A stretch of DNA of 64,000 bases from a virus (Duplodnaviria > Caudoviricetes): positions 13,727 through 77,726 of IMG/VR virus record IMGVR_UViG_3300028887_000104, one strand, 5' to 3'. Below are positions 29,080 through 36,391 of this stretch, piece after piece. The notes beneath the pieces were generated by a model, which ran no database searches, had not been told where the DNA came from, and saw nothing but the letters and a program-made list of their open reading frames with translations. The translations under genes and the position numbers were made by a program. The first letter of the stretch is position 1, and each line of letters starts with the position of its first letter.

Positions 29080-32000
29080 TTGGCAAGATTTGAAACATGG
29101 CTTAAATCCGATCTGAAAAATATGGTTTCCGTGACGAAACTTAGCGGAAACCTGTTTTCCGCTGACAACGGCGGGAACCTGATCGGCGTAGAAGTCATGG
29201 ATGGCGGTTCCCTGGCCGTACTGGAAGGCATCGTTACGGGATACGTGATCCGCTCTGACGGCGCAACGCTGATTATTACTGGCGAACTGGACGGAAACAA
29301 GGCATGGATTGAACTGCCTCAAAGCGCTTATGTGCATGTCGGGCAGATCAGCATTGTCATTAAGATCGGCGGTACAACGGTTGGCGCGTGCTCCGGATAT
29401 GTGTACCGGTCTACGACGGACACAATTGTTGATCCCGGGCACATCATCCCGAGCCTGGATGAACTGCTGGAAAAGATCGCAGACTGCGAAGCGGCGACTA
29501 CGGCAGCGAATGAGGCAGCTAATCTTGCCAATACGAAAGCCGGACTTGCAAACGACGCCGCCACACTGGCAAACCAGAAAGCCGAACTGGCTGACACCAA
29601 AGCAGGACTTGCAAACGACGCGGCTGCTCTGGCGAACCAGAAAGCTGAACTGGCTGACACCAAAGCAGGACTGGCAAACGATGCCGCCGCACTGGCGAAC
29701 CAGAAAGCCGAACTGGCTGACACCAAAGCAGGACTTGCAAACGACGCTGCGGATCTGGCAAACACAAAAGCGGAACTTGCAGACAGCAAAGCAACAGCGG
29801 CGAACAGCGCGGCGAACGCGGCGAATACCGCTGCCGGCAAGATTAACAACATGACCGTTGCGGCGAACGGACTTTCATCCGGATCTGACCCGACCGCGAC
29901 GATCAGCGAAGTATCCGGGCATAAGCACATTCTGTTCGGTATTCCGAAGGGCGACAAGGGCGATGACGGACGCGACTTCCACATCAAGCGCACGTTCAGC
30001 AGCATCGAAGAAATGGAAGCATACGATCCAGACGATGATCATACCATTTACAAGGTGCTGGAAAACGACTTTGTCATGATCGATACCGGAAGCGTGGAAG
30101 ATCCGGATACAGGAAAGCTTTTCTGCTATGAACCGCAGACGGTTGATGTGTGGCGGTACATCGGCGATCTGTCCGGCGCACAGGGCATACAGGGGCCAGT
30201 CGGAGCAACCGGCGCACGGGGGCCGAAAGGCGATACCGGCGAACAGGGACCGACAGGAGATACAGGGCCTACCGGTGAAACCGGTCCTGTTGGCGCGACC
30301 GGCGCACAGACGTATGTGCATATCAAGTACAGCGCGAACCAACCGACGTCCGACACGGACATGAAAGACACGGCAGACAAGTGGATGGGCGTATACAGCG
30401 GACTGTCCGCGACAGCACCGACGACCTATACCAGCTATGTATGGTACAAGATCAAAGGCGAAATCGGCGATACAGGTGCCACAGGTCCAACGGGTGCCAC
30501 GGGTGCCACAGGATCCAAGGGTGACACAGGCGCTACCGGACCGAAGGGGGCCACAGGCGCTACCGGTGCAACAGGCCCTGCCGGAAAGAATGCGAGTGCA
30601 TTTGATATCAAAAAGTCGTACGCCAGCGTCGCAACCATGGAAGCGGATTACAATAATCCGGATCTGGCTGTCGGAGATTATGTCACGATTGCATCCGGAA
30701 CGAGCGATCCTGACAACGCAAAGATCTACCGCAAAGGCAGTTCCGAGTGGGAGTTCATTGTTCAGGTATCCGGTTCGAAGGGTGATACCGGTGCCGCAGG
30801 TCCTACCGGAGCGACCGGTCCGACCGGCGCGACAGGGCCTGCTGGTGCAACAGGTCAGGCCGGACCCGCAGGAGCAACAGGTGCAACCGGACCTGCTGGT
30901 GCTACAGGTGTTGCCGGTGCGGATGGGCCAACCGGGGCGACCGGTCCTGCCGGAGTCACAGGCCCTACTGGAGCAACCGGTGCAGCTGGCACGGATGCAT
31001 ACGTATGGATCCGTTATGCTGCACAAGAACCGACGCAGGACAGCGATATGAAGACTACGCCGGATGAATGGATGGGCGTGTATTCCGGATCGGCTTCCAC
31101 CGCGCCAACCACGTATACCAGCTATGTATGGTATAAGGTAAAGGGAGACGACGCAAGCCTTCCGAGCGTAACATCCGCAGACAACGGAAAATTTCTCGGA
31201 GTTTCCGGCGGAAAGTGGGCGAAGACAAACGTTCCGACCATGACCGGCGCAAGCTCATCCATCGCAGGCGCGGCCGGACTGGTGCCTGCACCGGCGGCCG
31301 GAGCGAATGTATACTTCCTGAAGGGAGATGGGACATGGGCGATACCTTCAGGCGGGAAGCTGATCGTACGGGATCTGGACACGGTAACGAACACCAGCGG
31401 AAGCTACACGCACAGCACGACCGTCAGCGATGCGGCCAGCGACATGAAGGCCGTTATGATCGAGCTGGGGGATCCGAGCGTATTCAGATCGACCATCAAT
31501 ATATCCGTTGGGACCGGAACGATCACGCTGAACTGTTCAGACGTAGCCGGAACGAGTACGGTAAAAGTGGGGCTGATGTTTGTGGCCGGAGCGGACGCAC
31601 TGACCAGCTCGGAGTTTGATGTGCTGGCGGCGCGAATCGGAACGCTGAGCAGCCTGAAGACCACGGACAAGACGAGCTTGGTAGCTGCGACTAACGAACT
31701 GTATGACCATATTGAGAACAAAATACGGCATACCAGAAAGACAGATTTCAGCCTTTCCGACCTGCAATCGGCGGTTGTTGACCAGTGCCTTGAAAAGTAC
31801 GGGCTTCATGTTGGCGACCAGAAAACCATCAATGGACGCACCTATGTTATCGCAGGTCTGAACGTGATGAAAGGTTCTCATGATTATACCTGTACAAGCA
31901 ATCATGTTGGTTTGATTGTGATTCCGCATACCACCTGCAAGTGGAACGCAAGCGGAAATACCTACACAGGCGCAGACAACCGAGGCGCAGGATACAAAAA

Positions 32001-32436
32001 CTGCGACTTGCAGTATTACCTTGCGAATACGGTTAAGGGATGGTGCGATACCGACCTTGGCTCAGGTCATCTGTATCAGCATAAGAAACTATTCGGAAAT
32101 GCCATCAACCAGACGGGATATAACCGCTTCGGAACGAACTCCGGTTGTACGTCTGGTTGGGAATGGGTTGATGCTTATATTTCCGCTCTTACCGAAGCGC
32201 AAGTCTTCGGTGGTGACCATTGGTCTTCTTCCGGTTATGATACGGGCGAAGCGAATACTCTGCTTCCTGTGTTTGCGGAGTTCAAGCATACAGATATCTT
32301 CGGAGACGAATATCCGTGGTTAAGGAACGTTTCATCCGCTTCGCAGGCGTGCCTTGCGAACACCGTCGGGGGTGCGTCCGGCGACTACGGCGTGAGCAAG
32401 GCCCATTGCGTGGCCGGGCTTATATTATACCATTAA
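29080..32436 (+). CDS. Tail fibre / receptor-binding protein (BppU-like N-terminus, coiled-coil repeats, collagen-like repeats, DGR-type C-terminal domain)
   Basis: [16 protein letters not shown]-terminus, 21-aa repeats, G-A/P-T triplets, C-terminus EYPWLRNV...[20 protein letters not shown]. Confidence 0.85.
31704..31713 (+). other. Recombination site inside tail fibre gene (TGACCATATT, codons D-H-I)
   Basis: Exact reverse complement of the AATATGGTCA copies downstream. Confidence 0.7.
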
Positions 32437-32462
32437 GAATTGGCAGGGGCTTGTCCCCTGCC
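32305..32462 (+). other. DGR variable-region-like segment and downstream hairpin
   Basis: Run of NNC codons (AAC ACC GTC, TCC GGC GAC TAC GGC, AGC, GCC, TGC) at the gene end, then GGCAGGGG-cttgt-CCCCTGCC hairpin 32442-32462. Confidence 0.6.
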
Positions 32463-32477
32463 CCAAGAGGTGAAAGT

Positions 32478-32635
32478 ATGAAGTGACAAACGAAGGAAAA
32501 CGGAACCAAAGCCGGGTAGAGTTCGACAATACGTACTTCGCCGTTGATGACGATATCGAAAACCTGATAACAACCAACTTCGGATTAAAAGGCGAAAAGC
32601 TTGGATACCGAGGCTTGGGAGACATAAATCGCTGA
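32478..32635 (+). pseudogene. Truncated, frameshifted Avd-like (DGR accessory) gene
   Basis: GAGGTG RBS, ATG-AA-GTG, then VTNEGKRNQSRVEFDNTYF...NLITTNFG resembling Firmicute-phage Avd N-termini; stops after 50 codons. Confidence 0.45.
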
Positions 32636-32709
32636 AGAATGGCAATCAATAGGCGTAGTCATGTGAGGTGCAAATCCTTGCCCCGTGATTTGGCCCAATA
32701 TGGTCAGAT

Positions 32710-34917: not shown

Positions 34918-35265
34918 ATGAAATTAACAGAACTGATTGACTCAATCAATTTAGCATTACAGGTTGAAAAACATCCAGAAAATATTGAAGTCGTTATATC
35001 AACACAATTGCCGTATGCAACGTTGGGACAGCGTCCTTGTACTGGTGTGAAGTATGTCGGAATGGGATTCGATTGGGAGTCCGGACAATTCAGAATCGCA
35101 CCGGAAGAAAAGCTGATGTGCGTAAAGCATGATACGCCACAAACAGTTAAGGAATGGCGTGGGAATTATCACTGTCCGAAGTGTGAATACATGATTTCTA
35201 AAGGAAGAAAAGCAGATGCTATACGGTTTTGCTGTAAATGCGGACAGGAGGTAAAGTGGGAATGA
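34918..35265 (+). CDS. Cassette ORF with C-terminal zinc ribbon
   Basis: HCPKC...FCCKCGQEVKW. Confidence 0.7.
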   Translation: MKLTELIDSINLALQVEKHPENIEVVISTQLPYATLGQRPCTGVKYVGMGFDWESGQFRIAPEEKLMCVKHDTPQTVKEWRGNYHCPKCEYMISKGRKADAIRFCCKCGQEVKWE

Positions 35266-35346
35266 ATCTTTAATCTCACGACCATAAATGGTCAAATACT
35301 CTCAAGGTGCTAAATGGTCAGATAATGGTCCTGAGAACCACACAAA

Positions 35347-35382
35347 AAAACACCCCCGTCCGGAGTTAGACGGGGGTGTTTT
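35347..35382. terminator. Bidirectional terminator between array and recombinase
   Basis: AAAACACCCCCGTC / GACGGGGGTGTTTT. Confidence 0.8.
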
Positions 35383-35389
35383 GCATCTG

Positions 35390-36391
35390 TCAGGACGCGT
35401 ATTTTTTGTGACTGTTCTTGACGTCATCATCGAAGACTTTGACGTAGCGCATGGTGGTTTTGATTGACGCATGGCCCAGGAATTTCTGGACATGCTCAAT
35501 GGGCATTCCGGATGCGGACGCCAGGGTTCCGGCTGTATGCCGGTATATATGCGGCGTGATTTTGTGTGTCAATCCGGACCGCAGCCAGATATTCCCTATC
35601 TCCCGCTGCAACGCCTTCTCTTTGACACCGTGTTTCTCGTGGACGCGCTTGGAGACAAACACGAATTCGCAGTCATCATCGCGTGAATCCAGATACTTTC
35701 GAAGCGACACGAGCGCACGGGAGTTCAGATAGGTTATGCGACGCTTATCCCCTTTTCCATGACGGACAAGAACCGTACGCTTATCCCAGTCAATATCAGA
35801 CAAAACCAGCGCGGCAACCTCCGCAATCCGGCATCCTGTTGAGTACAGCAGATCTACCAGCGCTACCTCACGATCATCCCGGCAGGCCGCACGCATGATT
35901 TCCAGTTCGTCCCGGTCCATCGGTTCCCGGGCGCTCTCGTTATGCTTGATCGGATCCACATGAGCACATGGATTGGAACGGATCAGTCCCTCTCCGTGAA
36001 TCCATTCGAAAAAGCTGTGCAGGATCACGCGCTTGTTGTCCAGCGTCGAGTCCACAACGCCGCTTTCCATTTTGTACCGGCCTAGGAAGCCACGGATGTC
36101 CGTCGCCGTGATCTCATCCGGACGTTTCCGGACTGTCATGAAAAACCGGCGAATAAATGAAAAGTAGTTTTTCAGCGTATCCGGATTTACATTCTGGATT
36201 GCTTTCGACGAGATATAGTACTTCAGTTCATCCGGAATTGCATTATGGACAATCAAGTCGGTTGACTGTAACTGAATCTGGTACTTTGTGGCGATTGTAT
36301 CCGTGATGCCGATGATCTTCCGGACATCGTCCATATCATAGATCCGCATCAGGCCATCCGCCAGGTCAGAACGAAAAACCTCATAAGACAT
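35390..36391 (-). CDS. Tyrosine recombinase (XerC/D-like; shufflon invertase candidate)
   Basis: LLYSTGCRIAE, HGKGDKRR, ITPHIYRHT, FLGHASIKTTMRY; SAM-like N-terminal domain. Confidence 0.92.
   Translation of the reverse strand: MSYEVFRSDLADGLMRIYDMDDVRKIIGITDTIATKYQIQLQSTDLIVHNAIPDELKYYISSKAIQNVNPDTLKNYFSFIRRFFMTVRKRPDEITATDIRGFLGRYKMESGVVDSTLDNKRVILHSFFEWIHGEGLIRSNPCAHVDPIKHNESAREPMDRDELEIMRAACRDDREVALVDLLYSTGCRIAEVAALVLSDIDWDKRTVLVRHGKGDKRRITYLNSRALVSLRKYLDSRDDDCEFVFVSKRVHEKHGVKEKALQREIGNIWLRSGLTHKITPHIYRHTAGTLASASGMPIEHVQKFLGHASIKTTMRYVKVFDDDVKNSHKKYAS

Follow-up and report, generated by a model that had tools for sequence, protein, structure and literature searches.

The stretch of DNA analysed here, which we call the window, covers 64,000 nucleotides (nt) of a 77.7-kb IMG/VR phage record (IMGVR_UViG_3300028887_000104; Duplodnaviria, Caudoviricetes), and the public sequencing runs that contain this region are bovine gut or rumen metagenomes. 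In the window a tail-fibre gene is followed by an array of small units, which are bounded by copies of a short repeat, and by a gene convergent with the fibre operon that encodes a Xer-like tyrosine recombinase of 333 amino acids (aa; Table 1). Beyond the recombinase late genes resume on the plus strand and continue to an endolysin gene (39616-40524). In this paper we look at the repeat, at the fibre tip and at the recombinase, which together may form a device for the exchange of fibre tips.

Table 1. Features of the fibre, array and recombinase region and the lysogeny integrase (positions in the window; ORF, open reading frame; DGR, diversity-generating retroelement; VR, variable repeat; TR, template repeat; R and J, direct and inverse copies of the repeat)
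Feature	Position	Strand	Description
Tail-fibre gene	29080..32436	+	1118 aa; collagen-repeat stalk, C-terminal tip from ~31714; Pfam Collagen, PHROG tail-fibre families
J1	31700..31714	-	TGTATGACCATATTG; in frame, fibre codons Y-D-H-I, at stalk/tip junction; inverted repeat 93% over 15 nt
Tip module common to L063/L064	31706..32603	+	Tip domain, VR, hairpin and first part of avd; blastn 97-98% identity
DGR VR	32327..32422	+	Fibre 3' end; 84% identical to L064 TR
GC-rich hairpin	32442..32462	+	Directly past VR, at the position of a DGR target-recognition hairpin; without U-tract; kept in L063, L064
avd 5' fragment	32483..32603	+	DGR accessory gene; homology to L064 ends at 32603, no site there
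tRNA-like RNA, 3' half	32655..32706	+	Repeat family D2; no 5' half; R at 32697-32706
RNA-D	32707..32840	+	Structured RNA-like, 134 nt; R 32697 to R 32841; closed by a stem, with two hairpins inside; fold z = -2.9
D1 copy 1	32836..32940	+	R 32841 and 95-nt leader ahead of ORF 32935-33234; 105-nt repeat, 97% identical to 34819-34923
99-aa ORF	32935..33234	+	Backbone gene after the fibre region in related phages; homologues in G001 (41%), G006 (29%)
Spare small fibre tip	33238..33558	+	106 aa; N-terminal helix with J2, then beta-sandwich
J2	33290..33304	-	TGTCTGACCACATTG; in spare tip ORF 33238-33558, codons L-S-D-H-I
Cys-rich ORF unit	33591..33790	+	R 33591 to R 33781; 50-aa ORF 33617-33769
tRNA-like RNA A	33791..33945	+	R 33781 to R 33946; 13-bp closing stem beginning inside R; fold z = -4.3
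ORF unit	33946..34294	+	ORF 33971-34267 (98 aa); R 33946, degenerate R 34265, R 34285
HELLH ORF unit	34285..34662	+	R 34285 to R 34653; ORF 34311-34655, 114 aa, HELLH (HExxH) motif
tRNA-like RNA B	34663..34823	+	R 34653 to R 34824
D1 copy 2 and ORF	34819..35265	+	R 34824 and leader; ORF 34918-35265, 115 aa, Zn-ribbon-like C-terminus
Two terminal R sites	35285..35322	+	At 35285 and 35311, then terminator only; same place relative to recombinase stop in L064, L015, L018
Terminator-like hairpin	35347..35382	.	Between array and recombinase; 14-bp perfect stem; scan calls minus strand
Xer-like tyrosine recombinase	35390..36391	-	333 aa; SAM-like (SAM_4) and Pfam Phage_integrase domains; no arm-binding domain; convergent with fibre operon
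Lysogeny integrase	53003-54169		Tyrosine integrase with N-terminal Zn ribbon; separate from the 333-aa enzyme

The repeat was analysed as direct copies, named R, and inverse, in-frame copies, named J. Its motif WAWATGGTCA has 11 matches in the window, where 0.58 +/- 0.73 are expected and none of 100 shuffles reaches 11, and it is absent from the rest of the whole 77.7-kb record, which was searched. Ten exact matches are found on the plus strand (32697, 32841, 33591, 33781, 33946, 34285, 34653, 34824, 35285 and 35311), all direct copies, and the R array they form spans 32697-35320; the sole minus-strand match is at 31704-31713, inside the fibre gene. A first-pass annotation of this DNA, made from the sequence alone, counted 11 direct copies. 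The array is real, yet it is made of ten exact copies and a degenerate one, TAAATGGTCG at 34265. The conserved site extends beyond 10 bases, with the consensus (C)CAATATGGTCAGA or GCTAAATGGTCAGA, and the only minus-strand 13-mers in the window with one mismatch or less from this consensus are J1 and J2, whereas ~0.04 are expected on that strand. The longer site and the second inverse copy, J2, are new here.

Twenty-two R copies (reverse-complemented) and eight J copies from the window and from G001, G006, L015, L018, L063 and L064 were aligned. J and the reverse complement of R have the common core TCTGACCAnATTGnG in both consensus lines (compared by eye, in 5-7 phages), and in L064 the two are identical over 13 bases, ACCATATTGAGAA, reaching beyond the core. 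The left flanks of R are of three types, TTCGC, TTCTC and (T)CCC, which mirror the opening codons of the various tip families that follow J (ATTGCGAA, ATTGAGAA and ATTGGGGA). The placement of the sites is also conserved. A tip, or a tip with a DGR, lies between a J in its 5' part and an R past its 3' end in the window, L018, L015, G001, G006, L069 and L064; this R is found 32 nt past the spare-tip stop codon in the window and 1-48 nt past the tip stop codons in L018, G001, G006, L069 and L015. In the window, L064, L015 and L018 an R copy is separated from the recombinase stop codon by a terminator and 25-35 nt. The number of bases identical between J and R is 7-14 in phages with the enzyme (window, L064, L018) and 4-5 in those lacking it (G001, G006), a difference that, in this small sample, fits a decay of the sites without the enzyme.

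The first-pass annotation placed the inverted site exactly where the fibre stalk meets the tip, and this is borne out. Judged by sequence comparison, J1 is a genuine stalk/tip module boundary, because the same tip stands on other stalks in L063 and L064 with homology that starts at 31706. These two sister contigs, obtained in a JGI scan with the first tip bases, have stalks unrelated to that of the window, ending in ...S-L-S-N-H-I, and differ from the window by a same-orientation module exchange. Breaks at 31706 and 31709 are also seen in rumen contigs. A second tip family (…QIGEKATY…) is found in G006, L069 and L068, each time on a different stalk; its homology sets in at J and runs to the stop codon, and R comes next in G006 and L069. 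In independent contigs, module breakpoints are found both at J (31706) and at R (32700/32850 and 33591/33790). On a contig in ENA a gene of equal length, 1118 aa, is called. Scanning IMG/VR for the tip start gave no match, blastn of the region against the phage collection gave none either, and the IMG/VR related-locus search with the recombinase and with a 917-aa tail protein returned no relatives.

The spare tip, which contains J2, aligns with the tips of L018, L015, G001 and G006. Its profile search returned 9 proteins only, with the domain at the C-termini of proteins of 160-193 aa, and a k-mer search gave almost nothing. In the AlphaFold2 model of the spare tip (pLDDT 76) a helix is followed by a beta-sandwich, for which R-type pyocin fibre tips came out as the closest structures in a fold search (TMq 0.54, with an E-value that is not significant). 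In L018 (12796-14884), two fibre-region genes of 338 and 347 aa correspond to one 700-aa gene on a contig with an identical recombinase; this split may be due to a frameshift, a stop codon or a rearrangement in the fibre region.

The 333-aa protein scores below every curated cut-off of the Xer models (bits/cut-off: XerA 198/220, XerC 145/335, XerD 128/330). R188, K213, H281, R284, H307 and Y316 are invariant in 24 homologues. Nor does the locus look like that of a XerC/XerD dimer resolvase acting at dif, as the scores are below the equivalog cut-offs and, where a 28-bp dif-like site with two 11-bp arms would be expected, only weak dyad arms around ATGGTCAN are found, in the R copies of L064 and L015 alone. 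The nearest cellular homologues (33-39% identity) belong to hsdS inversion loci of type I restriction-modification systems, as in the Streptococcus pneumoniae locus hsdM-hsdS-rec-hsdS'-hsdS''(-)-hsdR, and HsdM or HsdS is found within 7 kb in 45 of 80 homologue loci by a crude tblastn. PsrA/CreX-type enzymes such as these use short inverted repeats to invert segments of coding sequence (PMC4948785, PMC7096588). The XerC/D-like gene that was noticed beside the array can be described as a dedicated second tyrosine recombinase, whose nearest relatives are invertases of coding sequences. Phage relatives of the protein, at 40-65% identity, also have a separate integrase beside CI-like repressors. 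The enzyme gene adjoins the fibre region in the window, L015, L018 and L064. Homologues of ~30% identity are encoded between the last tail gene and the holin gene of two cultured phages, phiCp-D and TPELB_ph1; an inverted-repeat search in these two was swamped by AT-rich noise. A conserved hairpin-like leader (…GAAGATGTGG…GCACA(C/T)CCTTC…AAAGGATGTGTTTTT) precedes the recombinase start in L015, L017 and L018 (9880-10000), with a weaker version at 36392-36470 of the window, and could function as a regulatory RNA or as a binding site.

The fibre tip was also subject to a different diversification system, a DGR, which was overlooked in the first reading both where it acts on the tips of relatives and as a remnant in the window. 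In L064 (738-2735) the VR at the fibre 3' end is followed by a hairpin, avd, the TR and a reverse transcriptase (RT) gene (RVT_1, E = 5.5e-25), and the alignment of this TR with three VRs shows differences mainly at TR adenines. Beyond the RT gene of L064 there are a small ORF, one R, a terminator and the 3' end of a convergent recombinase gene, of which the last residues fit the family consensus. The avd-TR-RT segment stands where the window has its array, and a complete DGR is enclosed between J and R; in the literature searched we found no description of a whole DGR inside such a segment. In the window the target gene still has its 3'-terminal VR, with the adenine differences and the hairpin, and this VR is hypervariable in run X3. 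Since the whole record has no PF00078 match, and so no RT, and contains a single VR/TR-like copy, and so no TR, the DGR in the window is a relic. Homology to L064 stops inside avd at 32603, which argues that an illegitimate deletion took the DGR core together with the 5' half of a tRNA-like unit. As in the Mtd-type DGR of phage BPP-1, the VR at the fibre 3' end is followed by a hairpin, with avd, TR and RT present in L064; the differences are that the 3' part of avd, the TR and the RT are gone from the window, and that the DGR of L064 lies wholly between J and R. By analogy with the biology of the BPP-1 DGR (PMC3240598), the hairpin would serve in target recognition.

Between the sites of the array there are about nine R-bounded units, which consist of small ORFs and tRNA-like RNAs and not of tips. 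That most of the cassettes are not tips had been noticed before, and it holds; single units also recur elsewhere with breaks at the site. A copy of the RNA-D unit (32700-32850) with 100% identity stands between other flanks in a further rumen contig (run X4), and the Cys-rich ORF unit (33591-33790) recurs in a 903-nt rumen contig (run X3), likewise with flanks unlike those of the window. Among the relatives, the sites of G001, G006 and L063 enclose units that differ from those of the window. From these contig comparisons, the non-tip units show modular exchange at R. The GC content is 37-44% in the units and 52-57% in the backbone, and in three units of the window and one of G006 the start codon is at a fixed distance of 25-26 nt past R. 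In run X1 contig cover is missing at 33353-33714 and 34077-34619 of the array.

Several units can be described further. D1 appears to be a portable 5' region, made of an R and a leader, that stands before two unrelated ORFs, and a D1-homologous leader precedes the spare tip in L018 (11584-11665, minus strand). The 98-aa ORF takes its stop codon, TAA, from the degenerate R at 34265. The 114-aa HELLH protein belongs to a large phage family of 551 members with no Pfam or PHROG match, which is located after tail genes and before lysis genes in two of the three contexts viewed. Since no site flanks the homologues of this gene in other phages, the site does not belong to the gene family as such. RNA-D has no Rfam family, and ARAGORN and Rfam gave nothing for the RNA units. 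The two full tRNA-like RNAs, A and B, of ~155-160 nt each, belong to a tRNA-Leu-like family that comprises 33791-33945, 34663-34823, the 3' half at 32655-32692 and a minus-strand copy at 44570-44672 in the window, as well as members in six IMG/VR contigs (L009-L014). The acceptor, D and T arms are conserved (T-loop TGCAAAT), while the anticodon/variable region is hypervariable or 70 nt longer; many rumen contigs hold versions with 20-40 nt between the conserved halves. Tandem integration targeted at tRNA genes, with the 3' tRNA fragments as att scars, was dropped as an explanation because most R copies have no tRNA-like part.

Taken together, we consider it probable that the locus is a Rin-type tyrosine-invertase fibre-tip shufflon which is partly decayed, whose sites also bound unrelated cargo and which includes the DGR relic. 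Rin shufflons were described in Bifidobacterium breve and B. longum (PMC6109161) and in Eggerthella lenta prophages (PMC8778435). They use an armless XerD-like tyrosine invertase encoded beside the receptor-binding protein (RBP) locus, in addition to a separate lysogeny integrase, and an asymmetric site of 8-11 bp that is found in the gene at the constant/variable junction, after its stop codon and by each small variable gene; the variable tips have ~95-110 aa, and inversion variants were seen in reads (PMC6109161; PMC8778435). The window likewise has an armless tyrosine recombinase flanking a fibre locus and distinct from the lysogeny integrase, the same kind of short asymmetric repeat, rare elsewhere, with an in-frame copy at the junction and a copy past the tip gene, and a similarly small spare tip of 106 aa. 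It differs from Rin in having one spare tip and none in the opposite orientation, in the non-tip cargo of its units, in an expressed tip that is a DGR target, and in that no inversion variants were seen in its contigs, whereas those of Rin were seen in reads.

According to this model the 333-aa enzyme would act on a short asymmetric site with the core TGACCA(T/N)ATTG. J would lie in frame at the stalk/tip junction and R in the opposite orientation, after each tip unit and beside the recombinase gene, and recombination of J with R would invert the DNA between them. The tip expressed here would be of the DGR type, with avd-TR-RT deleted. The spare tip, which lies between J2 and R 33591, could be brought into use by recombination of J2 with R 33591 followed by that of J1 with the new inverse site, or by an alternative route, a J1-J2 deletion. 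The non-tip units most likely entered or were swapped by recombination at R. This may have been the work of the same enzyme, acting on direct sites, or of recombination at short homologies when phages co-infect a cell; the sequence cannot decide between these two. The sites, where they are placed, the family of the enzyme and the module breakpoints at J and R are shown by the data; that the enzyme cuts these sites, and still does so in this phage, is what we infer.

Some of the data do not sit easily with a shufflon of this kind. Behind every R the minus-strand frame in the D-H-I phase is closed by a stop after 5-64 codons, and no tip is encoded there. Because no opposite-strand tip is found behind any R, a one-step swap is impossible here, and a shufflon working by a single inversion was rejected. 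The sole spare tip is on the strand of the fibre gene and requires two inversions or the J1-J2 deletion. All R copies are mutually direct, and the array should be unstable if the enzyme also made deletions between direct repeats. Its left edge, at 32603, is an illegitimate junction and not a site. R-bounded units occur without an enzyme homologue in G001 (72% complete) and in G006, where the entire stretch from the fibre gene to the lysogeny integrase is visible, and in L017 an enzyme homologue occurs without the site. The likeness to Rin is one of layout and parts. Moreover, among the contig joints listed there is no strand change, and no rearranged molecule, inverted or excised, was seen in the contigs; since contigs drop minor variants, this is a weak test for inversion. 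The host-range invertase of the first-pass annotation is supported in part, in that the layout matches the published Rin shufflon.

The same topology, in which a constant part is followed by an in-gene site, one or more variable segments, an inverse site and a recombinase gene, is found in the Gin, Cin and Min systems of Mu, P1 and p15B and in the Rci system of R64. Gin, Cin and Min are serine invertases under enhancer/Fis control, whereas Rci is a tyrosine enzyme that acts on pilV; all of them serve in host-range or recipient switching. They differ from our locus in that every segment is an alternative C-terminus. In the hsdS invertons with PsrA/CreX-type enzymes (PMC4948785, PMC7096588, PMC7672463), which hold the nearest cellular homologues, coding segments are likewise inverted between short in-gene inverted repeats, but the target is the hsdS specificity domains, and there is neither a fibre nor an array of unrelated units.

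Another option is a capture device similar to an integron, in which the recombinase would excise R-bounded units as circles and insert them at any R or J, so that a growing store of cargo is coupled to the exchange of tips. The array does resemble an integron in its mostly promoterless units, which share one orientation and one short conserved bounding site each next to a tyrosine recombinase. The fixed distance from R to the start codons, the low GC content of the units relative to the backbone and the recurrence of single units with breaks exactly at R would all fit, as would the single site beside the enzyme in L064 and L015 against eleven in the window. The order stalk-J-tipA-R-leader-short N-terminus-J-tipB, found in L018 and in the window, is what can be expected from a circle inserted at J. 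Yet neither a circle nor an empty site was observed, and the enzyme is far from the integron integrases (TIGR02249, 107 bits in two separate stretches against a cut-off of 265; NF011946, 69 against 435). The ORF units have no attC-like hairpins, a 13-nt asymmetric site being found instead, and the enzyme gene lies at the far end of the array, convergent with it and behind a terminator, rather than divergent from an attI site and a Pc promoter. Arrays without the enzyme (G001, G006), the enzyme without the site (L017) and homologues of cargo genes without the site elsewhere also speak against this option. The likeness to an integron noted in the first-pass annotation was not upheld for the enzyme or for the topology, and we regard such a capture device as unlikely. 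Just as tentative is the suggestion that invertase sites were co-opted as general cassette boundaries, where the same enzyme would flip tips and, at R and J, excise or insert cargo (tRNA-like RNAs, small ORFs and even a whole DGR). This would amount to an integron-like system for gene capture that is carried by phages, with contents shared among rumen phages.

It is also conceivable that no site-specific enzyme is involved. J would then be a conserved peptide linker (L-S-D/N-H/Q-I) and R a conserved non-coding boundary, modules would be exchanged between co-infecting phages by recombination at short homologies, through host RecA or phage RecT and in a way that resembles the promoter/stem-loop cassettes of T4-type phages, and the 333-aa enzyme would have another job, such as dimer resolution. 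Tips do change stalks at J in the same orientation, for which inversion is not needed, arrays do occur without the enzyme, and the phage encodes a RecT (45458-46402); the phage of the phiCp-D homologue has a ParM, and may thus be a plasmid prophage in need of a resolvase. But this leaves unexplained why, in several phages, 13-15 nt of the non-coding R should be the reverse complement of J, why an R always adjoins the enzyme gene, and why J and R are more alike where the enzyme is present, small as that sample is; the phage of the window integrates through a different integrase and so has little need for a resolvase. We find this explanation, together with the other job for the enzyme, rather improbable. 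A signal at the level of RNA or transcription, whether the -10 element of a promoter, a processing site of the tRNA-like RNAs or a leader pairing with the fibre mRNA, has very little chance of being the correct answer. It would account for the position of R ~10 nt ahead of a GAAAGG ribosome-binding site (RBS) in the same four units that have the fixed start codons, for GGTCA of R forming the base of the closing stem of RNA units, and for the complementarity of R to the fibre mRNA at J. However, R also follows protein-coding tips, and the tRNA-like RNAs at 44570-44672 and in L010-L013 have no R. A promoter role is unlikely and a sigma-70 promoter at R was rejected: the promoter scan gave no match at R, no register common to both R subtypes preserves A2 and T6 of the -10 hexamer, and the terminal R copies precede only terminators, which argues that R copies are not promoters. 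Both the enzyme-free exchange and the RNA signal are less likely than a shufflon or an integron-like device.

The core of the device favoured here, a decayed Rin-type shufflon, is not new, because Rin-type fibre shufflons have already been described. What is unusual is that most of what the invertase sites enclose is cargo other than tips, tRNA-like RNAs among it, and that single units recur in other rumen phages with breaks at the site. It is also unusual that two diversification systems serve one fibre tip, with a complete DGR in the J...R segment of a relative. The locus further illustrates how such a device decays, with the DGR deleted, the spare tips lost and J and R drifted apart in phages without the enzyme. 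If the enzyme does move units between direct sites, it would be a simple phage analogue of an integron and would offer phages a route to trade small accessory genes and RNAs.

A scan of IMG/VR for the site together with an RBS gave 31 loci, nearly all with a single copy and probably due to chance, among which L014 alone was previously known. As for lysogeny, a fragment of a tRNA 3' end (T-arm and acceptor; GGTTCAAATCC) is found at 54270, just downstream of the second integrase gene, and 53003-54300 is likely to represent the lysogeny integrase together with its attP. An integrase of the same type is present in G006 (L014 7414-8604).

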